Shown here: positions 38,386-50,184 of the stretch, piece after piece
Numbering within the stretch: the first letter of the stretch is position 1
How the letters are laid out: the number at the start of each line of letters is the position of its first letter
Source: a virus
IMG/VR virus record: IMGVR_UViG_3300023099_000001
Span: 1-61,180 of that record
Reading direction: 5' to 3' (one strand)
DNA: 61,180 bases
The notes under the pieces: generated by a model
What the model saw: the letters and a program-made list of their open reading frames with translations, nothing else
What the model was told of the DNA's origin: nothing
Database searches by the model: none
Translations under genes and position numbers: made by a program

Positions 38386-38456
38386 ATCGTGTTGGTGTAA
38401 TGGCAGCACAAGAAACTCCAAATCTCTTGGCGGGAGTTCGATTCTCTCACACTTTG
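38386..38456 (+). tRNA. tRNA-Trp(CCA)-like, acceptor stem defective at pairs 2-71 and 3-70
   Basis: D arm GTGT/GCAC, anticodon loop CTCCAAA, T arm GGGAG-TTCGATT-CTCTC, CCA encoded. Acceptor ATCGTGT/ACACTTT gives only 5 of 7 pairs. Confidence 0.45.
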
Positions 38457-38479
38457 CCAGCTTGAATAACTAAATACTT

Positions 38480-38552
38480 GGGCCTATGACTAGATAGGGA
38501 TGTCCCTGCTTTGCAAGCAGTGTGTATGGGAGTTCGAATCTCCTTAGGTCCA
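38480..38552 (+). tRNA. tRNA-Ala(TGC)
   Basis: Acceptor GGGCCTA/TAGGTCC with G3:U70; anticodon loop TTTGCAA; T loop TTCGAAT. Confidence 0.7.
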
Positions 38553-38557
38553 CGCAA

Positions 38558-38629
38558 CGCGGTGTAGTCTAACGGTAGGACAACAGTTTCATACGCTGTA
38601 CAGTGCGAGTTCGATTCTCGTCACCGCAA
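38558..38629 (+). tRNA. tRNA-Met(CAT) with C1-A72 mismatch (initiator-like acceptor), CCA encoded
   Basis: CGCGGTG/CACCGCA; anticodon loop TTCATAC; T arm GCGAG-TTCGATT-CTCGT; A73-CCA. Confidence 0.7.
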
Positions 38630-38654
38630 CCACTTGACAACTTAATATCAACAA

Positions 38655-38726
38655 CCGATTATACGCAAGAGGTATGCGGCACGCTTTGGGAGCATGAAGT
38701 CGAAGGTTCGAATCCTTCTAATCGGA
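38655..38726 (+). tRNA. tRNA-Pro(TGG)
   Basis: CCGATTA/TAATCGG; loop TTTGGGA (G37); T arm GAAGG-TTCGAAT-CCTTC. Confidence 0.75.
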
Positions 38727-38728
38727 CT

Positions 38729-38801
38729 GCGGCTATGACAGAATGATAATTGTCACTGATTGTGGATCAGTTGTACGTGGGTTTGATCCCCACTAGTCGC
38801 C
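38729..38801 (+). tRNA. tRNA-His(GTG), CCA encoded
   Basis: GCGGCTA/TAGTCGC; C73; anticodon stem ACTGA/TCAGT; loop TTGTGGA. Confidence 0.75.
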
Positions 38802-38896
38802 CCACTTCCCGGTAACGGGCAGCGCAACAATCGGCGCGATAAAAGACATGAGGTTAGCGGCCTCAGGTGAAGTCCTCACTGACGAATGGACAATTT

Positions 38897-38968
38897 GGGA
38901 CTATAGCTCAGAGGAAGAGCATTCGCCTGTCGAGCGAAAGGTCGCGGTATCGTAATCCGTTAGTCTCG
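38897..38968 (+). tRNA. tRNA-Asp(GTC), non-canonical T arm (U53-U61), CCA encoded
   Basis: GGGACTA/TAGTCTC; stem TTCGC/GCGAA; loop CTGTCGA; T arm GCGGT-ATCGTAA-TCCGT. Confidence 0.65.
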
Positions 38969-38972
38969 CCAA

Positions 38973-39045
38973 GTCGCATTAGGATAGCGGTTAATCCACT
39001 TGATTCTCAGTCAAGATACCGAGGGTTCGAATCCCTCATGCGATA
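38973..39045 (+). tRNA. tRNA-Glu(CTC)
   Basis: GTCGCAT/ATGCGAT; stem CTTGA/TCAAG; loop TTCTCAG; T arm GAGGG-TTCGAAT-CCCTC. Confidence 0.7.
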
Positions 39046-39046
39046 C

Positions 39047-39120
39047 GCTCCGTTGGTCTAGCGGTTAGGATGCCGGGCTTTCACCCCGTGCGAACGTCGG
39101 TTCGAATCCGACACGGAGTA
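39047..39120 (+). tRNA. tRNA-Glu(TTC)
   Basis: GCTCCGT/ACGGAGT; loop CTTTCAC; T arm GTCGG-TTCGAAT-CCGAC. Confidence 0.7.
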
Positions 39121-39122
39121 CG

Positions 39123-39150
39123 ATAGCACAGTACACCCTGTGCTATTTTT
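39123..39150 (+). terminator. rho-independent terminator inside the tRNA array
   Basis: ATAGCACAG-tacacc-CTGTGCTAT followed by TTTT. Confidence 0.7.
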
Positions 39151-39165
39151 AGTCAGTGGAGTATA

Positions 39166-39249
39166 ATGGATAACAGTACAGAGAACATCGACGGATTTGC
39201 TTGCCCAATTGATCCTATGGAAGCCTTGCAATGCGAGTCTTGCCAGTGA
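39166..39249 (+). CDS. micro-ORF (27 aa, Cys-containing)
   Basis: GGAG-tata-ATG; hand translation MDNSTENIDGFACPIDPMEALQCESCQ. Confidence 0.3.
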   Translation: MDNSTENIDGFACPIDPMEALQCESCQ

Positions 39250-39255
39250 TATAAT
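39247..39255 (+). promoter_or_regulatory. extended -10 element (TGaTATAAT) 8 nt before tRNA-Tyr
   Basis: The predicted start site would fall at or next to the mature tRNA 5' end. Confidence 0.4.
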
Positions 39256-39263
39256 TAAATAAC

Positions 39264-39345
39264 GGCGCGTTACTCAAGCGGTTAACGAGGTCTGACTGTA
39301 AATCAGATGTGTAATGCTACGGGAGTTCGAATCTCTCACGCGCCA
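39264..39345 (+). tRNA. tRNA-Tyr(GTA), class II
   Basis: GGCGCGT/ACGCGCC; stem TCTGA/TCAGA; loop CTGTAAA; 13-nt variable arm. Confidence 0.8.
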
Positions 39346-39405
39346 CGCAGTAGCTGAAGTGTTGCAACGGGACTAACTGAATAACTCCCTATTGCTGCTG
39401 CACTT

Positions 39406-39478
39406 GCCCCTTTAGCTCAAACGGTAGAGCATTGGTCTGAAACGCCGAGGGTTGTTGGTTCGAATCCAATGGGGGGCA
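39406..39478 (+). tRNA. tRNA-Phe(GAA)
   Basis: GCCCCTT/GGGGGGC; loop CTGAAAC; T arm GTTGG-TTCGAAT-CCAAT. Confidence 0.75.
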
Positions 39479-39483
39479 CGCAT

Positions 39484-39556
39484 GCCTGTGTACCCCAATG
39501 GCAGAGGGACAGCACTTAAAATGCTTTCAGTAAGGGTTCGAGTCCCTTGACAGGTA
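39484..39556 (+). tRNA. class-I-shaped tRNA with anticodon TAA (UUA-Leu codon)
   Basis: GCCTGTG/GACAGGT; loop CTTAAAA; only a 5-nt variable region; T arm AAGGG-TTCGAGT-CCCTT. Confidence 0.55.
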
Positions 39557-39574
39557 CGTTACAATTAAACATAT

Positions 39575-39655
39575 GGCTCATTGGTGGAATGGTATACACG
39601 CTAGTCTTAGGAACTAGTGCCGAAAGGTATAAGAGTTCGAATCTCTTATGGGCTA
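39575..39655 (+). tRNA. tRNA-Leu(TAG), class II
   Basis: GGCTCAT/ATGGGCT; stem CTAGT/ACTAG; loop CTTAGGA; 13-nt variable arm. Confidence 0.75.
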
Positions 39656-39669
39656 CTCGTAGGAAAATA

Positions 39670-39740
39670 AAAGCTATAGTGTAGTGGAAGCGCGCCGGGC
39701 CGTTAACCCGGAAGTGGGAGTTCGATTCTCTCTAGCAAAA
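39670..39740 (+). tRNA. tRNA-Asn(GTT)-like, acceptor pairs 1-3 all A-A, C33
   Basis: AAAGCTA/TAGCAAA; stem CCGGG/CCCGG; loop CCGTTAA; canonical D and T arms. Possibly a pseudogene. Confidence 0.4.
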
Positions 39741-39817
39741 AGTGGTGTATACTGCACACGTAAGCGCTCCCTGTTTGGTACGGGGGAAGCGGGACGAGGA
39801 CTACCGCATAGAAACGG

Positions 39818-39846
39818 TAGACACTACGATTCATTTAGTGTATAAT
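39818..39846 (+). promoter_or_regulatory. promoter (TAGACA-17 nt-TGTATAAT; TAGTGTATAAT copy)
   Basis: -35 at 39818-39823, 17-nt spacer, extended -10 at 39839-39846, 6 nt before ATG 39853. Confidence 0.55.
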
Positions 39847-39852
39847 AGGAGA

Positions 39853-39921
39853 ATGATGATTAAGCAGCAAACGAAATGCTCGGGCATAGGTAATACTGTC
39901 CGCGCCCTGTTTGCTGCCTAA
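39853..39921 (+). CDS. micro-ORF (22 aa), possibly leaderless
   Basis: MMIKQQTKCSGIGNTVRALFAA; followed by a terminator. Confidence 0.3.
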   Translation: MMIKQQTKCSGIGNTVRALFAA

Positions 39922-39942
39922 AAGTTCTTAGAACTACTTGAC

Positions 39943-39973
39943 AGCCTATAGGGAAACCTGTAGGCTATTTTTA
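39943..39973 (+). terminator. rho-independent terminator
   Basis: AGCCTATAGG-gaaa-CCTGTAGGCT followed by ATTTTTAT. Confidence 0.7.
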
Positions 39974-39991
39974 TAACTACACACAGCAAAT

Positions 39992-40073
39992 GGAGACACG
40001 CATGGGAGAGCTTATGCGTCTTGAAAACGTTGATGACCGCAAGGTTGTGGGGGTTCGAGTCCCTCTGTCTCCG
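39992..40073 (+). tRNA. tRNA-Ser(TGA), class II, atypical D arm
   Basis: GGAGACA/TGTCTCC; loop CTTGAAA; variable arm GACC-gcaa-GGTT; T arm GGGGG-TTCGAGT-CCCTC. Confidence 0.6.
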
Positions 40074-40123
40074 CAATAGGTTAGGAAGCCCTGAGTTCCA
40101 GAACAGCACCGACACCTAGATTT

Positions 40124-40206
40124 GGAATCATGGCAGAGCGGTAATGCAGCACCCTGCTAAGGTGTACAGCCTCACGGTTGCGAAGGTTCGATTCCTTCTG
40201 GTTCCG
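40124..40206 (+). tRNA. tRNA-Ser(GCT), class II
   Basis: GGAATCA/TGGTTCC; stem GCACC/GGTGT; loop CTGCTAA; long variable arm. Confidence 0.75.
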
Positions 40207-40229
40207 CTTGACAACTAAATAATAACTAA

Positions 40230-40301
40230 CCCCCTGTAGCTCAGAGGCAGAGCACCGGACTTTTAATCCGAGGGCCGAGATTTCAAAATTCTCTGGGGGG
40301 A
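40230..40301 (+). tRNA. tRNA-Lys(TTT), non-canonical T arm (U53-U61)
   Basis: CCCCCTG/TGGGGGG; loop CTTTTAA; T arm GAGAT-TTCAAAA-TTCTC. Confidence 0.6.
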
Positions 40302-40395
40302 CAAACTCGACACACGGAGCGCTCTGTGCTAGAGTTAGGTACGTTGGACCGGACTGGTGCAATTCAAGCTAAGGTTTCCGCAACGTACCGATCTT

Positions 40396-40466
40396 GCCTT
40401 ATTGATGTAGAAGTAACATACTAGTCTTCCAAACTAGGTTCGCGGTGGCAGAATCCGCATAAGGCT
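40396..40466 (+). tRNA. tRNA-Gly(TCC), non-canonical T arm
   Basis: GCCTTAT/ATAAGGC; stem CTAGT/ACTAG; loop CTTCCAA; T arm GCGGT-GGCAGAA-TCCGC. Confidence 0.6.
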
Positions 40467-40485
40467 CTTGATAACTAAATAACAT

Positions 40486-40558
40486 GCCGAATTAGCTCAT
40501 CAGGTAGAGCAGGTATCTTGTAAATATCAGGTGGTCAGTTCGAGTCTGACATTCGGCC
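40486..40558 (+). tRNA. tRNA-Thr(TGT)
   Basis: GCCGAAT/ATTCGGC; loop CTTGTAA; T arm GTCAG-TTCGAGT-CTGAC. Confidence 0.8.
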
Positions 40559-40560
40559 CC

Positions 40561-40628
40561 GGTTCACGTTCTGGGAACAAGCATCCTTTACACGGAAGCT
40601 CCGCAGAGTCCGATTCTCTGGTGAACTA
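40561..40628 (+). tRNA. tRNA-Val(TAC), short D arm
   Basis: GGTTCAC/GTGAACT; loop TTTACAC; T arm CAGAG-TCCGATT-CTCTG. Confidence 0.55.
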
Positions 40629-40778
40629 CGCAATACGTCTTAGCATGGTGTAAGCCTGAAGCTAAGAACTATACAGGAACTTACATTCCGTGGTATAGTC
40701 GAGTCAAAGGATACTCGTAATCATCCGGCGCTGATAGTTTATGGTACAACGCATGAAGCATAATGAACCGTACAACAT

Positions 40779-40850
40779 TGGAGTGTGGCGCAGCGGCAGC
40801 GCAGGAAACTGTTAATTTCTTGGTCGTAGGTTCGAATCCTACCATTCCAG
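40779..40850 (+). tRNA. tRNA-Asn(GTT)
   Basis: TGGAGTG/CATTCCA; D arm GCGC/GCGC; loop CTGTTAA; T arm GTAGG-TTCGAAT-CCTAC. Confidence 0.75.
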
Positions 40851-40870
40851 CTTTACAATTAAATATCAAT

Positions 40871-40942
40871 GCCTTATTAGCTCAGCGGAAGAGCTTGCGC
40901 CTACGGAGCGTAGAGTCGGGAGTTCGAATCTCTCATAGGGCA
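40871..40942 (+). tRNA. tRNA-Arg(ACG)
   Basis: GCCTTAT/ATAGGGC; loop CTACGGA; T arm GGGAG-TTCGAAT-CTCTC. Confidence 0.8.
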
Positions 40943-41023
40943 CGAAAGGCTGTGTGGTAGGTATCTCAGACGCTCCCGATAACGGAGACAGTAGATCACA
41001 GTGAAGAAACACCCTACCGACAA

Positions 41024-41095
41024 TGCCCGCTGGTGTAACCGGCAACACGACTGGCTCTGAATCAGTTATTTCTAGTTCGAATCTAGGGTGGGCAG
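41024..41095 (+). tRNA. tRNA-Gln(CTG)
   Basis: TGCCCGC/GTGGGCA (U1-A72); loop CTCTGAA; T arm TCTAG-TTCGAAT-CTAGG. Confidence 0.75.
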
Positions 41096-41105
41096 CGCTT
41101 GACAT

Positions 41106-41177
41106 ACCCCGTTGGTGTAGCGGCAGCACGCGAGCCTTTGGAACTCGTAGGGCGTGGTTCGAATCCACGGTGGGGTG
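41106..41177 (+). tRNA. tRNA-Gln(TTG)
   Basis: ACCCCGT/GTGGGGT; loop CTTTGGA (31-39 C-A mismatch); T arm CGTGG-TTCGAAT-CCACG. Confidence 0.65.
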
Positions 41178-41197
41178 CTCTGATAATTTAATAACAC

Positions 41198-41269
41198 GCC
41201 CCTCTAACTCAGAGGCAGAGTATTCCCCTCTTAAGGGAAGAGTCGAGATTTCGAAATTCTCGGGGGGCA
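41198..41269 (+). tRNA. tRNA-Lys(CTT), non-canonical T arm (U53-U61)
   Basis: GCCCCTC/GGGGGGC; stem TTCCC/GGGAA; loop CTCTTAA; T arm GAGAT-TTCGAAA-TTCTC. Confidence 0.65.
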
Positions 41270-41270
41270 C

Positions 41271-41344
41271 TGTCCTAGGGCCGAACGGTTTGACGGCATG
41301 AAGCTTATAACTTCACGGACAGGGTTCAATTCCCTGTGGGACTA
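41271..41344 (+). tRNA. tRNA-Ile(TAT)
   Basis: TGTCCTA/TGGGACT (1-72 U-U); D stem GCCG/CGGC; stem TGAAG/CTTCA; loop CTTATAA. Confidence 0.55.
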
Positions 41345-41345
41345 C

Positions 41346-41417
41346 GGTAGTGTGCGTGAGTGGCTAGCGCGCTGATTGCAAACCAGTTGTACGCCTGTTC
41401 GAATCAGGTCACTACCT
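41346..41417 (+). tRNA. tRNA-Cys(GCA)
   Basis: GGTAGTG/CACTACC; U73; loop TTGCAAA; T arm GCCTG-TTCGAAT-CAGGT. Confidence 0.75.
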
Positions 41418-41436
41418 CTTGATAATTTAATAGCAA

Positions 41437-41508
41437 GCCTCTATAGCTCAATGGAAGAGCAACGGTTTTCTAGGCCATAGGTTGCGGGTTCGAATCCTGC
41501 TAGGGGTA
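41437..41508 (+). tRNA. tRNA-Arg(TCT)
   Basis: GCCTCTA/TAGGGGT; loop TTTCTAG; T arm GCGGG-TTCGAAT-CCTGC. Confidence 0.7.
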
Positions 41509-41566
41509 CTGGGTGCTACCTATGGCGGTAGTTAAATGTCGGCATCGTCCCTACAGCCCTTATTAA

Positions 41567-41640
41567 AGCCGTTTAGCTCAGTAGGTTAGAGCGCTGTGCT
41601 GATAACACAGAGGTCCGCAGTTCAAATCTGCGAATGGCTA
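41567..41640 (+). tRNA. tRNA-Ile(GAT)
   Basis: AGCCGTT/AATGGCT; stem CTGTG/CACAG; loop CTGATAA; T arm CGCAG-TTCAAAT-CTGCG. Confidence 0.8.
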
Positions 41641-41648
41641 CGTTATGG

Positions 41649-43145: not shown

Positions 43146-43301
43146 TTAGTCCTCGTACCATCTTCCGATATAGTAATGTCTGTAGCTTATGATAACGGAT
43201 AACTGCCAGCCCGCGTTACCCATCATCTTAGAACCCCTAAGAAAGTAAGGCGCGTGCCACTTGGTATTAAATGTTTTGTAACTGCCAATGTGAAACTTCA
43301 T
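43146..43301 (-). CDS. small ORF (51 aa)
   Basis: Hand translation MKFHIGSYKTFNTKWHAPYFLRGSKMMGNAGWQL...; abuts the HNH stop. Confidence 0.4.
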   Translation of the reverse strand: MKFHIGSYKTFNTKWHAPYFLRGSKMMGNAGWQLSVIISYRHYYIGRWYED

Positions 43302-43703
43302 TTATTCTCCATAGAATTCTAATAACTCTTTAGCCCACGATATCTTATCTGACACGCGCTGTCCAGCAGGTTGTGAAGTAGGCCATAATTCAAGATTGGA
43401 CAATCTATTATCAAGCTTGTCCCCGTTTATGTGGTGTACATTTTCTCCGGGCAGCAACTTACGCCCCAAATGGCGCTCCATAACTAGTCTATGTTGCATG
43501 GCACGCCTACCGGTCTCGGTCATTTCTAATACGTAACCCTTGGAAATAACTGTATGACCTATTGGCGCTTTCACTCTAGCTTTAGAGGGCAATGCGACTT
43601 GCTCAAACGTCCCTAATTCAATTAAATAGTAGCGACACTTGCCGCAAATTCCTCTTGCTGTATGTTCTTTTACTATGCCACAATTTACACATTTAGTCTT
43701 CAT
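43302..43703 (-). CDS. HNH endonuclease
   Basis: N-terminal CxxC...CxxC and [17 protein letters not shown]. Confidence 0.85.
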
Positions 43704-44160
43704 GCTCAGGCCAATACGCTTTAGCTGTTGGTAGGTGGTTAAGTTTTCCCCAAGCTAATGCGTGCATCCTAGCATCCATCTGATGACGCTGGCCGGGTAT
43801 CCAGAAACCATGCTCTCTAAGGGCACTGTCGCCCACTAGGCTCTTCTTAGTGTTGCGCTGGTAGGTGACTGTACCCTCACCCAGTAAGGCCGTTAGAGCG
43901 CCTTCTATGCGTACCGGTGTGAGGTCGGGTTGCTTAGTTCGACCGTCTAAAACGAAGCTCTCAGAGACAATAGTAAACTGGTCCCACTCCCACGGCTCTA
44001 GCTGGTTTAGTTCCTGCGCCTTAATAAAATTTACGACACCGACCACGCCGTTAGGTATTTGACCGCCCGCGACAAATGTCATAGGCTCGCTGTCCGAATA
44101 CTGCGCGATTGACCAACCTGTCGTACCACCGGGATCAAAAGCTAACACATATTTAGTCAT
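43693..44160 (-). CDS. RuvC-like Holliday junction resolvase
   Basis: [14 protein letters not shown]-terminal catalytic motif; 155 aa. Confidence 0.7.
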
Positions 44161-44458
44161 TGTCTAGCACCAACACTTCCGCGTAGTAAGGTATTGTATC
44201 TGGAATGTCAGAAGGGTTGTACCAGTAGCTAGGATACTTACCATTACGGCCTTTGACATGCTTAGTCTTGCTGTACATGCCAACAATTCTGACACCACCA
44301 TTTTCTTTGTGCATAATAGTTCTGGGAATTATATACCACCTATGCAGCTTAGCGTTGGCGCGAAACGTACCATCACTGTTGCTGTACTTAAACTCGGTAT
44401 AAATTTGACGACCTATATGAAGGCCGTTTAGTTCTATCGCTTTCATTTCTGGTACCAA
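44153..44458 (-). CDS. small protein, IELNG-family paralog
   Basis: KAIELNGLHIGRQIYTEFKY resembles the N-termini of 53227-53463 and 53460-53681. Confidence 0.55.
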   Translation of the reverse strand: MVPEMKAIELNGLHIGRQIYTEFKYSNSDGTFRANAKLHRWYIIPRTIMHKENGGVRIVGMYSKTKHVKGRNGKYPSYWYNPSDIPDTIPYYAEVLVLDND

Positions 44459-44727
44459 CTTTCTTTTGCCGCCTTTAGTTTAGCTGTGAGCACTGGCTGA
44501 GCACCTACCTTTGTGGAAAAGTCTCCCTGAAAACCGGCTTCACATTCTAGGCTGTGTAGTCTGACATCATCTACAAGTACGATATCTGCATCAGCAATTC
44601 GCCACACAGTGCCAGAGCTTATTACGTTAACTTTGTTGCCTTCTGGATCGCTAAAACTTTCGGACCAAAAAACAAGATCACCAACCCTAAACACTGTAGG
44701 TACTCGGCTCATAGCAAATCTCCCCAA
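44443..44727 (-). CDS. hypothetical protein (94 aa)
   Basis: ORF track. Confidence 0.55.
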   Translation of the reverse strand: MGRFAMSRVPTVFRVGDLVFWSESFSDPEGNKVNVISSGTVWRIADADIVLVDDVRLHSLECEAGFQGDFSTKVGAQPVLTAKLKAAKESWYQK

Positions 44728-45482
44728 CTACGTCCGTACGAAAATTCGCTCAGGTACGGCACTTTGTCACCGAACACGGCTTCTCCGGTCAGTCTAAACT
44801 CCGATTGTATACGCTTACCTATGATATCCGCAAGTGTCCATGCCGCAGGATCAGCACCCGGAATTTCCACGAGGATAGCGTCATGCACAAGGGCCACGAT
44901 GTGCGCGCCTTGCTCTTTAATCCACGGGTGAACTCTTATAGCGGTTACCAAACAAATGTCAGAGCTAATCGCCTGCGGCATAAAAGACAACGCTTCGCGC
45001 TCGATGTTACCCTTGTTTTTGTGTGTAATGATTTCGCTTTGAAAACGCCGACCAAATGGTGTAAGTAGGTATTGATCACGGAGAGTTTCGTCTGTTGCAG
45101 CGCGCTTGACATTCACACGCCATTCAGCAAATTTCTCTGCTGTTGTCAAGTAGTTGTCAATAATAGCTTGCGCCTCGCGGACAGTGATGCCAAGCTCTAC
45201 TGCAATTGCTTTAGCTTCGCGGCCAAACGCTAGTCCGTACTGCACAGTCTTTACTTTGACGCGGAATTCTTTCTTAGCCGTCTTGTCAATGTTGTGCACG
45301 TCAACATTAGGGAAACAAATGGGCATCATGTAATTGTCGAAGAAATCCCCGGCACCTTCGCGTAAGGCGTTCAGCATCCAAGGGTCGTCAGATAGTGCCG
45401 CCATTGTTCGTAGTTCCGCTTGGCTGAGGTCTACTTGTAAGAGCGTCACGTCTTGCCTGCTTTCTTTCCTTGTCTGGATCAC
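44709..45482 (-). CDS. DNA polymerase I (family A), C-terminal fragment (motifs A, B, C)
   Basis: GTG start preceded by a stop. VDLSQAELRTMAALS (motif A), KTVQYGLAFG (motif B), VALVHDAILVE (motif C). Confidence 0.85.
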   Translation of the reverse strand: MIQTRKESRQDVTLLQVDLSQAELRTMAALSDDPWMLNALREGAGDFFDNYMMPICFPNVDVHNIDKTAKKEFRVKVKTVQYGLAFGREAKAIAVELGITVREAQAIIDNYLTTAEKFAEWRVNVKRAATDETLRDQYLLTPFGRRFQSEIITHKNKGNIEREALSFMPQAISSDICLVTAIRVHPWIKEQGAHIVALVHDAILVEIPGADPAAWTLADIIGKRIQSEFRLTGEAVFGDKVPYLSEFSYGRSWGDLL

Positions 45483-45744
45483 GAGTTATATAAGTGTTTG
45501 CAAGGTCTTGCGCGTGGTGAGGGAATGTATTTGTAGTATTCCAGCGCCCACCGGGAGTATAGTTCTGTATATAACGAATAGTTCTTTGCGCACTATAACC
45601 TACCAATCTCCACTCTTCTAGCAGTATACCCAGCACTTTAATTTTGTGCTTTTGGCGTTTGATTTTAGCGCGCAGGCGTAAGATTTCTTCTGCCATTTGA
45701 AGTTCAAGCTCGGTAGGATTACGAGGTATCAAGTCATCCACCAT
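45388..45744 (-). CDS. hypothetical protein within the polymerase split (118 aa from ATG 45744)
   Basis: ATG overlaps the stop of 45734-46093 (ATGGTGGATGA). Coiled-coil-like; the 3' end overlaps the polymerase C-fragment. Confidence 0.45.
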   Translation of the reverse strand: MVDDLIPRNPTELELQMAEEILRLRAKIKRQKHKIKVLGILLEEWRLVGYSAQRTIRYIQNYTPGGRWNTTNTFPHHAQDLANTYITRDPDKERKQARRDALTSRPQPSGTTNNGGTI

Positions 45745-46093
45745 CAGGTAATACAACTCCCGTACCGTTTTCGTGACGGTTACCGTCACTGTCATACCAG
45801 ATAATAGTGTTGTGGTCTGTCGGACCCATGTCTGGGTAAATTGTCTTCCAAAACTCTGCGTTCACTGCGGGATCATTGCTGTGTGAGCAGGGAAATCTGT
45901 GGTTGACTGCGCCGGGACAGCGTTTGTTGCCGCACTCAGGGCATAGTGTCATCCATGACCCGCCTTGCATAAACGCTTCGAAAGGGTCAGCAGGCCGCAC
46001 CCACGGCACTTCAGGATCACGCCACGGTGGGCCGCATTTACTGCATGTACACATGTCGAACGGCGTTACTTTGTTTGGATTAATGTCAGCCAT
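45734..46093 (-). CDS. Cys-rich (zinc-finger-like) protein within the polymerase split (119 aa)
   Basis: CTCSKCGPPW...LCPECGNKRCPGAVNHRFPCSH. The ATG lies 3 nt after, and in frame with, the TAG of the polymerase N-fragment. Confidence 0.55.
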   Translation of the reverse strand: MADINPNKVTPFDMCTCSKCGPPWRDPEVPWVRPADPFEAFMQGGSWMTLCPECGNKRCPGAVNHRFPCSHSNDPAVNAEFWKTIYPDMGPTDHNTIIWYDSDGNRHENGTGVVLPDGG

Positions 46094-46096
46094 AAT

Positions 46097-47452
46097 CTAT
46101 CCTATGTAAATCGAGCGAAATTTTGCGTCGCGGGGAATGTTTTGTATGTTCGGGCCTGAGCTTGACAACCTGCCTGTACTCGTACCGTGTACAAGAAATG
46201 TTGTATGCACTCTGCCTTTGCGGGCTTTGTTCAGTGCGCCTGTCACATAGGTAGAGAGTGCTTTACTTACCCCTCTGTACTCTAACAGTAAATCAATGAA
46301 TACAACAACAGGGTGAGTAGACGAAAAGTTGGCCCTATACTTTGTCAAATGTTTTTCATCTGTACTGTCCGTGTAAGCGGTACCAGAGAATGAAGTCAGA
46401 ACAGTTTGGACTTGCTGCCATGAACCGGGATTAAATAGCTTGTTTGTTTTGAACACAACGCCGCTAGTAAGCGTCTGAAGTTTAGAAAGTAGGTCGTCTA
46501 CTTCAAATGCCATATCGTTTTCAAGATTCTGCGTATAAGGCACATCAATAGCGAAACCGAACTGCTCCACATCCAGCAGGAAATCTGCGGCCTTCATTTC
46601 CAGTAGGAAAGCTTTCTGCGCTTCATCATCAGCGAAGATAAGCGGCTCAAGATACTTCCAAAGCTCATACGTCCAGTACACATCCCACATGTTGTACTCA
46701 TTCAGGATGTGTGCGGGCACGTTCTCGTAGTAGGCACCGCCTACCGTCCATTTAGACAGGTCAGCTTCCCACTCGGGGGCACCCAAATACATTCTGCACA
46801 GTGGCTTGAGCTTGTGAAGTCCTGCGGCTTGGTTGAGTACGTGGTGCGCAAGCATGGTGTCGAAAAAGTTTGGCATTCTAACGCCAGTGCGTGCTTCTAT
46901 TACACGGATATCGAACTTACCATTATGCCAAATAGGGTACTTGATTTTACGTAGCCACTGTTTAACAGCGGCCATTTCTAGGGGCGTTCTGAAATCCCAG
47001 CACGCCCACATACCCTCTTGATAGAAGCTGATCGAGAGAATGTCAACTTGTTCAGGCGTGTGCTTTTTATCAAGGTCACCAGCAGTCTCAATGTCTACTG
47101 CAATTGGCTTGTCAAGGTCAAACCTGTCTAAGCCACCCTGAATAACTCTGGTAGGGTGAACCTTTTGGGGTAGATAAAACTGGTTCAGGGCGGCTTTCAG
47201 GACGCTTACAGCATTGGCTTTTGTACATATTTGCGCAAGGCTGTAAGTGTGGACAAGCTGGCTGCCTGTTTGTATGGCATTTAAGGCAATTCTACCCATA
47301 GGATCAACTATAGTACCAAAGATTAAAACTCTGGGTTCGTGAATACCACTAAACGAGGCGTAGTTTTTGGGGTCTAGGTTATGAATTCTAAAGGTGTTCG
47401 GCGGGTATTGGTCGATGACACCTTTGATAATATCAAAAGCATCCTGAGTCAT
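46097..47452 (-). CDS. DNA polymerase I (family A), N-terminal fragment (3'-5' exonuclease, thumb, motif 2a; start at ATG 47452)
   Basis: IAVDIETAG (Exo I); HNGKFDIRV; TGRLSSSGPNIQNIPRDAKFRSIYIG then TAG. Confidence 0.85.
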   Translation of the reverse strand: MTQDAFDIIKGVIDQYPPNTFRIHNLDPKNYASFSGIHEPRVLIFGTIVDPMGRIALNAIQTGSQLVHTYSLAQICTKANAVSVLKAALNQFYLPQKVHPTRVIQGGLDRFDLDKPIAVDIETAGDLDKKHTPEQVDILSISFYQEGMWACWDFRTPLEMAAVKQWLRKIKYPIWHNGKFDIRVIEARTGVRMPNFFDTMLAHHVLNQAAGLHKLKPLCRMYLGAPEWEADLSKWTVGGAYYENVPAHILNEYNMWDVYWTYELWKYLEPLIFADDEAQKAFLLEMKAADFLLDVEQFGFAIDVPYTQNLENDMAFEVDDLLSKLQTLTSGVVFKTNKLFNPGSWQQVQTVLTSFSGTAYTDSTDEKHLTKYRANFSSTHPVVVFIDLLLEYRGVSKALSTYVTGALNKARKGRVHTTFLVHGTSTGRLSSSGPNIQNIPRDAKFRSIYIG

Positions 47453-47459
47453 GGGTTGC

Positions 47460-47879
47460 TCAGAGTAAATCGGTACCTGTATAACCACTGAGACTCCTAG
47501 AAATTTGTGAAAGCGTAAGACCTGTAAACTTAGCAACAATTCTACGTGAGTTACCGTCAAGAATTGCGCCATGCAGCAGGTGAACATTGATAGGTCGCCC
47601 GTTGTTTAAGTTTAGTCGTAGCTGCAACAAGGTGTCAAGGCTCTTCGGGTTAAACTTTCCGGTACCTTTGCGTGGCATTTCAATGCCAAAACCTCTGATG
47701 GTACTGGCAGACCAACCTGACAGTTGCACCAGATGACCTGTGCTGAACAGTCCCCACTCGTTCAGCGACACTAACGCTTCGTAACGTTGCTGCTTTGACA
47801 TAAATTTGCTGCGTTCGTAAAGGTATTTTGCCTCTGTCATTGCCTTTACATAATCAGCATTACTCAGTTGTACCTGCAA
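47460..47879 (-). CDS. putative DNA-binding protein (139 aa)
   Basis: ORF track; HTH-like segments. Confidence 0.5.
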   Translation of the reverse strand: MQVQLSNADYVKAMTEAKYLYERSKFMSKQQRYEALVSLNEWGLFSTGHLVQLSGWSASTIRGFGIEMPRKGTGKFNPKSLDTLLQLRLNLNNGRPINVHLLHGAILDGNSRRIVAKFTGLTLSQISRSLSGYTGTDLL

Positions 47880-50076
47880 AATTTATCTCCAAGGTTCTAG
47901 CAACAGGTCCAGTTTTACGCTGAATGATTCTACCCATGTCTTCAAGTCCGTCAGCAAGCTCAAGGAACTCTTTCGGGCGCTTGTCATCGAACTGCTTGTA
48001 TGCAAGCTCGTAACTAACCTTGCCGCCTTTTTGAAGAATGAACTTCTCAAGCTTGGTAAGGTCAGCTTGCCAAGCGGACTCAGAAATCATGGCAGCGATC
48101 TTCTGTAAATCATCGTACCAATCTTCCGCCAAGTCAATAGCCGACAATACATCATCAAGCTCAATGTTTTGACGCTTGTCATCCATAGCAAACAGTGCAG
48201 CAGTCTTTGCCACACTAATGACAAGACGCTCAATTGGTCCTTTGAGAGTTTCAAAGCGTGAGCTTGTCATAATCATTTTCTTCACAGCGAAACTGAATTC
48301 GTTCAACCGGGCCAAGGCCGGGTCGCTGAATCTAATAGGTGTTGTCTGGCTGCGGTTACCTCGCATACCCCAGAAATTACGCACCACTGCAAGGTGCTGC
48401 ACTAGACTCTCCCGCACGGGGTCAACATAACCTGCTGTTGTAGCTCCGCTTTGTTTCAGCGGATCATTCTGGGGCTCATACGGGCGCGGCTCAACCAGCG
48501 TGTACAAGAATCGTGTAAGGAACCCCGACTCGAAGTGCTTAATTGTCAGAGCTTCCGCAACGTGCGTAACAATACCGGTTAGATACATTTGAAAGTTAAC
48601 TGGCACAGATTTGATAACCTGTTTGTCACCAGTGCTGCGTAATGTACCGCGAGATTTACCGGAGTAAAGCTGCGTCCAGTAACCTACAAGACCCGTAAGA
48701 TAACCCTGTGAAAATACTTCACGGAATACGTCTTGGACTTCGTCAGCGTGCAGCAGTGATGACTGGTGCGGGCGCTCAGATAGCGCCTTGTTCAGACCTT
48801 GCTGCGTTACATCAGAGCCAATGTCGTAAGTGTAATCTGGTGTCTCAAGTGACTCAAGAATACCTGTCATGTATTTGAGCGCAGTAGTTTTACGGTCAAC
48901 TGTTGTATTACCCAACAGCATTACCCAAACAGCAAGGTTTGTTTCTTCAAAGTCAAACGGGATATGTCCGTACTCTGCATACACACATGACATAAGCATA
49001 AGGGCAGCCATGCGGTGATACTTAGCAGGACTAGTTGTGTGGCTGGTTGCCCATGCCTCGTATTTGTCAATGAATGTGACTGGCAAAGACGCGCGCTCTT
49101 CTGCTGTAAGAAAGTCGGCAGGAATGATTGTCTCGTAGATGTTGATAAGAGCATCACCGTCAAGCGAGGATGCTGCCTGAGCCGCTAAATCTACCGGCCT
49201 GCCATCGTCTACAGGCGGCTGATTTTCGGGGTCAACTTCGGCGTTGAGAATTTCTTTCCAAAGATGCTCTTGCGGACGATTCTCTTGCTTGTATTTACAG
49301 CAAGGGGCATCCCACACGAGTACCAAAACCTCTTCAGCACTGAACCCATAGCGGAACAGTTCACTTTCGAGCTTGTATCGCATTTCCGAACGGCGACCGG
49401 GGATTGGCTCGTCAAAAAGCAGGTTGCGTAACGTGCGGTCGTCAGAAATTTTATCGAGCAGGGTTGCTCTGTCAGGTAGTTTCGCTGTGTCAAGCGGCTT
49501 ATCTGTGCCGTACACTTTTTCGGGTACATCTGTTGCTGGGTAGGCGGCTTCGAGTTCTGCTAACGAGTAGATAGCAGTGCCGTCAACAACTACTGTGACC
49601 CTGAAGTTGTCGCGGTTAGTGTTAAGACTACCGGGCACACGTAGCATCTTAGCTGCGTGACCAAAGTTTCTATCTAGTCCCTCGTCTTTGTGTGCCCAAT
49701 GGACACGACGATTGAGTAGTGCAATAGTATGCGGGTTATAATCCCCGTCAAGAAACCAATAATTGTGTGTACGACCTTCGGCTGTTTGGACTGTGAGACT
49801 AGGTACAATCTTATAAGCATTGAAATCAAAAACGTCTGAGTCCGCGTAAGCCACGCTTGTTGTTTTGGCATAAATCTTCTCACGTTTCGGCTGGCTGAAC
49901 AGCACAGGACTGAAGTAGACTTGCTGGTTGACACCGTTGGTGTCAGCATAGCGTACCATATCGTCAAGCTGCACAGGGTAGCTGAAGAATGTTCCCTTGC
50001 TTGACAGGTCAGTGGTTAGGACAGCGTAACCCTCGCCAGCACCGAAGATGCTTTCAAAGAATTCGCGTGTCTGCAT
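47860..50076 (-). CDS. DNA primase/polymerase-helicase (AEP prim-pol N-domain plus DUF3987/D5-like C-domain, putative)
   Basis: 738 aa; SVAYADSDVFD and THNYWF resemble AEP motifs; position next to the polymerase. Confidence 0.65.
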   Translation of the reverse strand: MQTREFFESIFGAGEGYAVLTTDLSSKGTFFSYPVQLDDMVRYADTNGVNQQVYFSPVLFSQPKREKIYAKTTSVAYADSDVFDFNAYKIVPSLTVQTAEGRTHNYWFLDGDYNPHTIALLNRRVHWAHKDEGLDRNFGHAAKMLRVPGSLNTNRDNFRVTVVVDGTAIYSLAELEAAYPATDVPEKVYGTDKPLDTAKLPDRATLLDKISDDRTLRNLLFDEPIPGRRSEMRYKLESELFRYGFSAEEVLVLVWDAPCCKYKQENRPQEHLWKEILNAEVDPENQPPVDDGRPVDLAAQAASSLDGDALINIYETIIPADFLTAEERASLPVTFIDKYEAWATSHTTSPAKYHRMAALMLMSCVYAEYGHIPFDFEETNLAVWVMLLGNTTVDRKTTALKYMTGILESLETPDYTYDIGSDVTQQGLNKALSERPHQSSLLHADEVQDVFREVFSQGYLTGLVGYWTQLYSGKSRGTLRSTGDKQVIKSVPVNFQMYLTGIVTHVAEALTIKHFESGFLTRFLYTLVEPRPYEPQNDPLKQSGATTAGYVDPVRESLVQHLAVVRNFWGMRGNRSQTTPIRFSDPALARLNEFSFAVKKMIMTSSRFETLKGPIERLVISVAKTAALFAMDDKRQNIELDDVLSAIDLAEDWYDDLQKIAAMISESAWQADLTKLEKFILQKGGKVSYELAYKQFDDKRPKEFLELADGLEDMGRIIQRKTGPVARTLEINFAGTTE

Positions 50077-50110
50077 AACCTACCCTTAGCTTGAATTATA
50101 AATGTCTATG

Positions 50111-50184
50111 TCTCTCACCTGAGATTCGAACTCAGATCGCACACCGTTTGAAGGTGCCGCCTCTACCATTTGGGCTAGCGAGAG
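50111..50184 (-). tRNA. class-I-shaped tRNA with anticodon CAA (UUG-Leu codon), isolated on the minus strand
   Basis: Reverse complement: CTCTCGC TA GCCC-AAATGGTA-GAGGC GCACC-TTCAAAC-GGTGT GCGAT CTGAG-TTCGAAT-CTCAG GTGAGAG A. Confidence 0.6.

Follow-up and report, generated by a model that had tools for sequence, protein, structure and literature searches.

The window analyzed here, a stretch of 61,180 nucleotides (IMG/VR virus record IMGVR_UViG_3300023099_000001, positions 1 to 61,180), carries a family-A DNA polymerase gene (polA) that is broken immediately upstream of the sequence coding for catalytic motif A. We consider it very likely that this polymerase is permanently encoded as two genes, an arrangement known as “genes in pieces.” Moreover, the distribution of the break among related loci shows, as judged by sequence comparison, that it dates back to a single event in the ancestor of a large uncultured phage clade (genome sizes of ~55-65 kb) and has been kept since. 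The two polymerase pieces and the two small open reading frames (ORFs) between them are as follows.

46097-47488, minus strand: PolA N-fragment, 463 aa from GTG 47488, ending at the TAG stop codon 46097-46099
45734-46093, minus strand: ORF1, 119 aa, cysteine rich, with a C-terminal WYDSDGNRHENGTG tail
45388-45744, minus strand: ORF2, an orphan of 118 aa, with overlaps of 11 nt at the ORF1 stop and 62 nt at the C-fragment start
44709-45449, minus strand: PolA C-fragment, 246 aa from GTG 45449, with motifs A, B, and C

The initial annotation had described a family-A polymerase in two pieces, and all of its elements are found on the minus strand in the frames and at the coordinates given there, apart from the two start codons considered below. 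The N-fragment contains the 3′-5′ exonuclease and the initial third of the polymerase domain, as far as ...PNIQNIPRDAKFRSIYIG, after which comes TAG (46099-46097). It matches the Pfam families DNA_pol_A_exo1 (1.5e-14) and DNA_pol_A (profile positions 11-137 of 381; 2e-20), as well as the PHROG family phrog_17, DNA polymerase (8.6e-65). The C-fragment matches the remainder of the DNA_pol_A profile (positions 150-381 of 381; 4.6e-33) and has intact copies of motif A (DLSQAELR), motif B (R..K...YG..FG), and motif C (VHDA). The two pieces taken together therefore have the exonuclease domain and the motif-bearing polymerase domain of a Pol I-type, family-A enzyme.

Alignment with the unsplit polymerases of Yappy (a Curtobacterium phage) and Jojan60 (a Stenotrophomonas virus) confirms that the two fragments are homologous to contiguous and collinear PolA regions, and it places the break just before motif A. 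Only ~4-5 loop residues are absent at the junction, consistent with the earlier statement that almost no polymerase residues are missing. At this junction, the N-fragment end ...FRSIYIG corresponds to IRRIYQA and VRHCFIA of Yappy and Jojan60, respectively, and the C-fragment start TLLQVDLSQAELR corresponds to ILVECDYSQAELR. Thus, two collinear ORFs on the same strand jointly cover a gene that is contiguous in relatives, with the loss of very few residues.

Structural matches in the PDB for the polymerase pieces include the Taq, Klenow, and Bst enzymes. The C-fragment maps to Taq residues 605-794, with its first residue near Taq W604. Because its TLLQVD sequence aligns with Taq L605-D610, Asp7 of the C-fragment corresponds to the catalytic motif-A aspartate, D610. 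The structure alignment of the N-fragment reaches NIPR (Taq 583-586), and its end at about A600 is placed by motif alignment rather than by the HMMER alignment. The break is located ~6 residues before the catalytic Asp, in what we take to be the short loop that joins the motif-2 strand (...FRSIYIG) to the motif-A strand (TLLQVD...) in Pol I structures.

Both start codons differ from those initially assigned. The C-fragment most likely begins at GTG 45449 (MTLLQVDLSQAELR) rather than at GTG 45482, a codon that is indeed preceded in frame by a stop (TAA-CTC). Homologs of this fragment begin M-T-L-(L/V)-Q-x-DLSQAELR, at the position of GTG 45449, which fixes the start of the window protein as MTLLQVDLSQ.... 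With this change, the spacer between the halves measures 647 nt instead of ~614 bp. For the N-fragment, GTG 47488 is most likely the start in place of ATG 47452, given that AGGAG is present 5 nt upstream, that the ATG start of the relative L002 occupies this position, and that the gene call for the source contig is also 463 aa. In contrast, the source-contig call for the C-fragment (protein P0010) begins at an internal ATG located 15 codons past GTG 45449 (231 aa, MAALSDDP...), and the automatic calls of many homologs (231-232 aa) likewise use an internal ATG. As a consequence, the catalytic Asp is omitted from these proteins.

Several lines of evidence indicate that the break is a character of an entire clade. 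A protein search with the C-fragment yielded 148 proteins at E values up to 1e-20, and the best 120 of these 148 homologs (46-100% identity) are all stand-alone proteins of 215-264 aa whose N-termini align 3-5 residues before DLSQAELR. In addition, 80 loci from IMG/VR and 80 from metagenomes were fetched, and each was scored for reading-frame continuity. All loci whose C-fragment is at least 47% identical to that of the window (~30 loci) are broken at the same site, whereas all loci at or below 44% identity carry a single ORF, as do Yappy and Jojan60. Besides these two cultured phages, at least 90 metagenomic relatives are unsplit. In a neighbor-joining tree of the C-fragment regions, the split loci form one clade that includes no unsplit member and has Jojan60 as its sister. 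Because the identical break is seen in dozens of independent contigs, it can be attributed neither to chance nor to an assembly or sequencing error, the possibility that the initial annotation had named as grounds for rejecting the split. The sharing of this break by a whole clade of uncultured phages instead argues for a lasting two-piece enzyme, not a fresh insertion.

No cultured phages were found inside the split clade. Protein identity to the closest cultured phages, all unsplit, is no higher than 34-43%, and a megablast search of the locus against 50,697 phage records gave no match. The break point lies close to an end of PHROG profiles 12241 (N-type) and 2573/10285 (C-type), whose members may or may not share it. 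Motif A reads DLSQAELR in 22 of 24 split-clade sequences and D(Y/F)xQ in nearly all unsplit relatives, and the split loci L165 and L087 retain DYSQ. This distribution indicates that the change from Tyr to Leu (window 45428-45430) roughly tracks the split. A separate observation concerns a distant PolA (33% identity) with a uracil-DNA-glycosylase-like N-terminus in L038/L116 (2471-4604), which is broken upstream of a PNxQNI motif. Part of its thumb region is apparently out of frame, and it could represent either a separate split or a frameshift error.

The gene was originally described as being split by a two-ORF insertion. However, the break predates these ORFs, as the monophyletic clade has gaps ranging from -4 nt to ~1 kb that hold unrelated genes. 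Specifically, the distances from the N-fragment stop to the C-fragment start in relatives are -4, 45, 174-305, 467-664 (a range that includes the window), 843, and 914-992 nt. The gap of -4 nt, a TGA/ATG overlap (GGATGACC), is present in L006, L007, and L086, which derive from three separate assemblies. Clustering of the spacer ORFs revealed that the sets carried by different relatives are unrelated. The contents observed are as follows.

Acidic-tailed protein of ~65 aa (..VGF.PNPE followed by a D/E run): L002, L008, L009, L010, L012, L014, L016, L085, L088, L093, L097, and L165 (12 loci)
Family of 89 aa: 6 loci
ORF1 family: the window, L012, L165, and P0003, with a tail fragment in L097
HNH_3 homing endonucleases: L087, L104, L170, and L173
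Singleton ORFs: many

The acidic-tailed protein, which is absent from the whole window, is often coupled to its neighbors by stop/start overlaps on both sides. Even close relatives differ in spacer content: L085 carries only the acidic-tailed protein, L086 has an empty spacer, and an HNH gene distinguishes one of the sister loci L165 and L087 from the other. Spacer turnover is therefore fast compared with polymerase divergence. In the window, the spacer is not bordered by repeats, either direct or inverted, it contains no promoter or terminator, and its G+C content and composition show no anomaly. Its appearance is that of neither a recent acquisition nor a structured RNA. ORF1 and ORF2 are the current occupants of the spacer rather than the cause of the split, and most likely passengers.

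Both halves of the polymerase are under purifying selection. The ratio of nonsynonymous to synonymous substitution rates (dN/dS) is 0.10-0.17 for the N- and C-fragments where synonymous sites are unsaturated, with values of ~0.12 (N-fragment) and ~0.10 (C-fragment) in the comparison with L002. Furthermore, the two-gene arrangement persists even in L006-type loci, where a single-base change could re-fuse the halves. Of the options considered at the outset, a two-subunit polymerase linked to mobile genes has the best support. Because every relative has its own N-fragment stop and its own C-fragment start, the latter usually accompanied by a Shine–Dalgarno-like sequence or a stop/start overlap, we infer that the halves are translated separately from one tightly packed, same-strand operon. 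The two polypeptides would then associate noncovalently to rebuild the palm, by analogy with the split gp43, NrdA, and topoisomerase proteins of T4-type phages, for which experiments have demonstrated reassembly. The space between the two genes has become a hotspot in this clade, gaining and losing small accessory genes as well as genes for HNH homing endonucleases.

Several points weigh against this interpretation. First, the proposed association of the two polypeptides is deduced from conservation and precedent. Second, the break is inside the catalytic palm and not at a domain boundary, which makes it a demanding place for reassembly. Third, the C-fragment of the window starts with GTG, its Shine–Dalgarno-like sequence (GCAGG, 6-11 nt upstream) is weak, and its start is overlapped by ORF2. 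Finally, there is no recognizable endonuclease in the gap of the window, and so a mobile-element origin must be argued from the relatives.

We also considered whether the two small ORFs take part in polymerase function. As the initial annotation noted, ORF1 begins 3 nt after the N-fragment TAG and is in frame with the N-fragment. Its core (CxCxxC...M.LCPECGNKRCPGAxxHxxxCSHSN) belongs to a family with the consensus CxCxxC...M.LCPxCGNKRCPxAxxHxxxCxxSN..GQxGS.Y over ~68 aa (homologs P0002-P0240). A profile built from the first homologs identifies at least 5995 family members in phages and prophages, none of which has a Pfam domain. Many of these homologs are ~68 aa long, and Pseudomonas aeruginosa genomes commonly carry one of them. 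The invariant residues C15, C17, C20, C51, C54, C59, H65, and C69 suggest two zinc sites. An AlphaFold2 (AF2) model of ORF1 (pLDDT 75) gave no significant PDB match with Foldseek, and its matches in BFVD are only to uncharacterized homologs from Arthrobacter and Gordonia phages. Members of the family occur both in the same polymerase gap (L012, L165, and P0003) and beside unrelated genes elsewhere. ORF1 thus appears to behave as a widespread small phage gene and not as a recognizable nuclease.

ORF2 appears to be coding, given that, among the six frames, its own alone scores as coding-like in codon usage (+0.22 to +0.27 per codon, compared with -0.20 or lower for the others). An exhaustive HMMER search of 1.84 billion representative proteins returned only ORF2 itself. 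Weak pairwise similarity (E value 3e-6) to the L002 ORF that occupies the equivalent position falls in a coiled-coil region, and a single-sequence AF2 model has a long helix near the N-terminus (residues 10-48) and is otherwise of low confidence. Neither ORF has a match in Pfam, PHROG, NCBIfam, or PADLOC, and the ORF1 model has no nuclease fold, in agreement with the earlier remark that neither inserted ORF shows an obvious nuclease motif. In addition, a (W)YDxDGxxHxNGxG motif ends five otherwise different gap ORFs and is found nowhere else in the split loci, although the pattern was derived from these same sequences. Its sites are as follows.

Window, 45734-45800 (C-terminus of ORF1)
L165, ~1210
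L097, ~3949
L089, ~3949
L008, ~4696

One possibility is that ORF1, ORF2, or both are working partners of the split enzyme, serving as assembly or regulatory subunits. Such a role would be in keeping with the recurrence of ORF1 homologs in the same gap, with the restriction of the shared C-terminal motif to gap ORFs (subject to the derivation just noted), and with the translational coupling of ORF1 and ORF2 to the polymerase halves. However, many members of the clade lack both ORFs and some lack any gap gene, members of the ORF1 family occur by the thousands in unrelated contexts, and ORF2 has no homologs. We therefore regard a partner function as unlikely.

Another explanation is that the polymerase is dead or only partly used, either as a decaying pseudogene or as an exonuclease alone, with replication carried out by an enzyme of the host or by another polymerase. 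The position of the break, 6 residues from the catalytic Asp, could be taken to favor this view, as could the presence of VHDA in place of VHDE in motif C and of DLSQ in place of DYSQ in motif A. However, the low dN/dS values noted above apply to both halves over a synonymous divergence that reaches saturation, and both halves are intact in every complete split locus examined (~30 loci with 47-100% C-fragment identity). The stand-alone proteins among the best 120 C-fragment homologs are all full length, and VHDA is also present in the unsplit polymerases of the cultured phages Yappy and Jojan60. Moreover, no other DNA polymerase domain was seen adjoining the locus. Loss of polymerase function is consequently very unlikely.

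Some phage PolA genes, for example those of SPO1 and T7-like phages, are known to contain group I introns, and the spacer is located in a highly conserved coding region, as is usual for intron insertion sites. The 647-nt spacer might therefore be a group I or other self-splicing intron that carries ORFs, such that splicing restores a single polymerase mRNA. This option, which the initial annotation had raised, is highly implausible on present data. No Rfam match was obtained across 44400-47000 at E values up to 10, the spacer RNA folds no better than shuffled sequences (z = +0.68), and the spacer is completely filled by two ORFs with coding-like codon usage. In addition, relatives with gaps of -4 nt (L006, L007, and L086) or 45 nt are still split, spacer sequences are unrelated among relatives, and the N-fragment stop and C-fragment start are each present in every relative.

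We assign negligible probability to the idea that recoding joins the pieces, whether by readthrough of the TAG to produce an N-fragment-ORF1 fusion, by a frameshift from ORF2 into the C-fragment, or by ribosomal bypass of the spacer. The in-frame position of ORF1 only 3 nt past the TAG would favor readthrough, and the 62-nt overlap of ORF2 with the C-fragment frame would favor a frameshift. Inspection of the sequence also showed that the N-fragment ends with GGA-TAG, the combination present at the T4 gene 60 take-off site (GGA then TAG). However, the ORF that follows the N-fragment is in another frame in L002, L165, and P0003, the N-fragment stop varies among TAA, TAG, and TGA across relatives, and none of the 24 tRNAs of the window is a suppressor. 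The readthrough fusion that was proposed earlier also would not restore a polymerase. With regard to bypass, there is no matching GGA landing codon in the C-fragment frame before GTG 45449, and the 647-nt gap is filled with coding ORFs; to our knowledge, a bypass of this length would be more than 10 times longer than any known one. An intein or split intein was rejected, as the TAG comes directly after the final polymerase residue, a TAA 11 codons upstream of the C-fragment start closes that reading frame, no HN-C/S/T junction precedes the C-fragment, and none of the four ORFs has a Hint or intein match in Pfam.

The genes surrounding the split polymerase are tightly packed on the minus strand, which encodes all genes across 43300-50100. 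In order, these are as follows.

47860-50076, minus strand: primase/helicase-like protein (phrog_10514, DUF3987), first in gene order
Then, all on the minus strand: a 139-aa protein, the PolA N-fragment, ORF1, ORF2, the PolA C-fragment, two small ORFs, a RuvC-like protein (phrog_1981), and an HNH endonuclease
43302-43703, minus strand: this free-standing HNH endonuclease, assigned to phrog_20891 and labeled HNH_3 by the precomputed annotation; it lies downstream of the RuvC-like gene

Yappy and Jojan60 have a matching order that consists of a primase, small proteins, a single PolA gene, small genes, and a resolvase. Elsewhere in this 61-kb phage genome, there is a cluster of 23 tRNAs (window 38386-41641) and a tRNA-Leu (50110-50184).

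Considered together with its relatives, the two-gene locus is best interpreted as a hotspot of homing endonucleases and gene turnover, to judge from the genes found in the gap. No nuclease domain or fold is present in ORF1 or ORF2, but four diverged relatives carry HNH_3 genes directly upstream of the C-fragment, as follows.

L087, 1228-1839
L104, 2300-2776
L170, 1938-2441
L173, 902-1354

Pairwise identity among the gap HNH_3 endonucleases of L087, L104, and L170 is 43-62%. The HNH ORF of L104 begins with MLKPGYILLNADLA, a copy of the C-fragment start MLKDGYVLLNADLSQ. Such a duplicate is the mark expected of an element that entered the DNA encoding motif A and carried with it a replacement 5′ end for the downstream gene. 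Such a model of insertion with a replacement 5′ end was proposed for fractured genes by Dassa et al. (PMC2677866). An endonuclease origin for the ancestral break is plausible in light of these relatives: the break may have been made, with less certainty than the split itself, by insertion of a homing endonuclease gene into the conserved DNA coding for motif A, and the window phage would represent the state after later loss of the endonuclease. The free-standing HNH gene of the window (43302-43703) is not related to the endonucleases in the gaps of these relatives.

Some relatives also carry inserts of 6-7 nt within the 24 nt that encode DLSQAELR. We identified these in eight distinct loci (nine records, with L090 duplicating L008), and they fall into four classes, given below with the inserted bases in brackets.

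CAG[TTATCAT]GCN: L104, 2828-2834; L169 and L170, 2479-2485
CGA[TTATCGA]GTC: L008, 5033-5039 (same contig as L090); L176
CTT[TAGCTY]CGN: L009 and L014, 5040-5045
TTG[TAGTTG]AGC: L173, 1377-1382

In all cases, motif A becomes perfect once the bracketed bases are excised. Each insert ends with a repeat of the codon that precedes it, an imperfect repeat in the CAG[TTATCAT] class, and its first codon is TAG or TTA, the latter being the rarest Leu codon in these phages. The codons flanking the inserts differ synonymously between loci, and the downstream 232-aa parts of the insert-bearing loci have dN/dS values of 0.04-0.14. An insert is present in three of the four HNH-bearing loci and in 5 of the 27 without HNH genes (Fisher p = 0.04, in a post hoc comparison). 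Motif A of the window is uninterrupted, with 27 nt from the Asp codon to the Met codon, and a pattern scan of IMG/VR for more loci with 7-nt inserts gave only two chance matches. General recoding of TAG was considered for L009 and L014, and no evidence for it was found.

These inserts are candidates for natural ribosome hops or +1 frameshifts, based on their sequences. The bypass in T4 gene 60 involves a stop or “hungry” codon after the take-off site together with matched take-off and landing codons, and it protects the phage's own DNA from MobA (bioRxiv 10.1101/2022.08.31.505936). As of the review by Atkins et al. in 2016, no natural in-frame stop-hop was known (PMC5009743). We speculate, tentatively, that the locus is the DNA-polymerase counterpart of T4 MobA/gene 60, wherein an HNH family targets motif-A DNA, made the split, and re-invades, and wherein the inserts protect the target and are skipped by hopping or by a +1 shift. 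The window would then represent the susceptible state, free of both endonuclease and insert. If this is true, the TAG classes of insert would be natural “stop-hops.”

The closest parallel to the two-gene polymerase appears to be the split of T4 genes 39 and 60. In T4, the large subunit of topoisomerase is split into these two genes by MobA, the halves reassemble, and gene 60 contains a 50-nt bypass (bioRxiv 10.1101/2022.08.31.505936). Similarities include an essential enzyme broken inside its catalytic domain into two collinear genes, an HNH-type endonuclease located between the halves in some genomes and progressively lost in others while the split persists, and the presence of short inserts near the break, within the downstream half, as in the relatives of the window. 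In contrast, the enzyme studied here is a family-A DNA polymerase, the window has neither endonuclease nor insert, the inserts of its relatives are 6-7 nt rather than 50 nt, and N- and C-terminal extensions are minimal.

A replicative DNA polymerase encoded by two adjacent genes is also known from Aeromonas phages 25 and 44RR, where either an untranslated spacer or a gene for a homing endonuclease lies between gp43A and gp43B, and where the pieces copurify and are active (PMC2988022). That enzyme belongs to family B, has another break point, and is split in a few phages, whereas the present split is fixed across a large clade. Similarly, NrdA of phage Aeh1, the original “genes-in-pieces” case, is split by the HNH endonuclease gene mobE and reassembles from separate polypeptides into an active enzyme (PMC2988022; Friedrich et al. 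2007 as cited there). Its break likewise is associated with an endonuclease and falls in a functionally critical region, but the enzyme is different and the endonuclease is present in Aeh1 and absent from the window.

Family-A polymerases encoded by two ORFs with small ORFs between them have been reported for LUZ24-like Pseudomonas phages (PMC3890496), T7-like cyanophages of clade B (PMC12695635), and MEP401-type OM43 phages (PMC10580990). Among these, the LUZ24-like phages and the cyanophages have the break at the boundary between the exonuclease and polymerase domains (171 aa and 546 aa in UFV-P2), whereas here it is inside the palm just before motif A. Finally, the “fractured genes” described by Dassa et al. 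(2009, PMC2677866) feature split inteins that flank a free-standing endonuclease. As in the present case, a conserved phage enzyme gene is broken in place, with a mobile gene between two parts of unchanged orientation. However, there are no intein halves or Hint domains here, and the N-fragment ends in polymerase sequence and a stop codon.

Split phage enzymes are an established class, and this member is distinguished by its palm-internal break point and by the fixation of the break across a large uncultured clade. One practical consequence concerns annotation, in that automatic gene calls in the split clade often omit the catalytic Asp and split halves are easily misread as truncated genes. 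The motif-A inserts may need nonstandard decoding, which would make natural ribosome hopping directly testable. Above all, a replicative family-A polymerase appears to work over the long term as two polypeptides cut 6 residues from a metal-binding Asp. Such an enzyme would serve as a natural template from which to engineer split polymerases and as a case in which to test the reassembly of broken enzymes.

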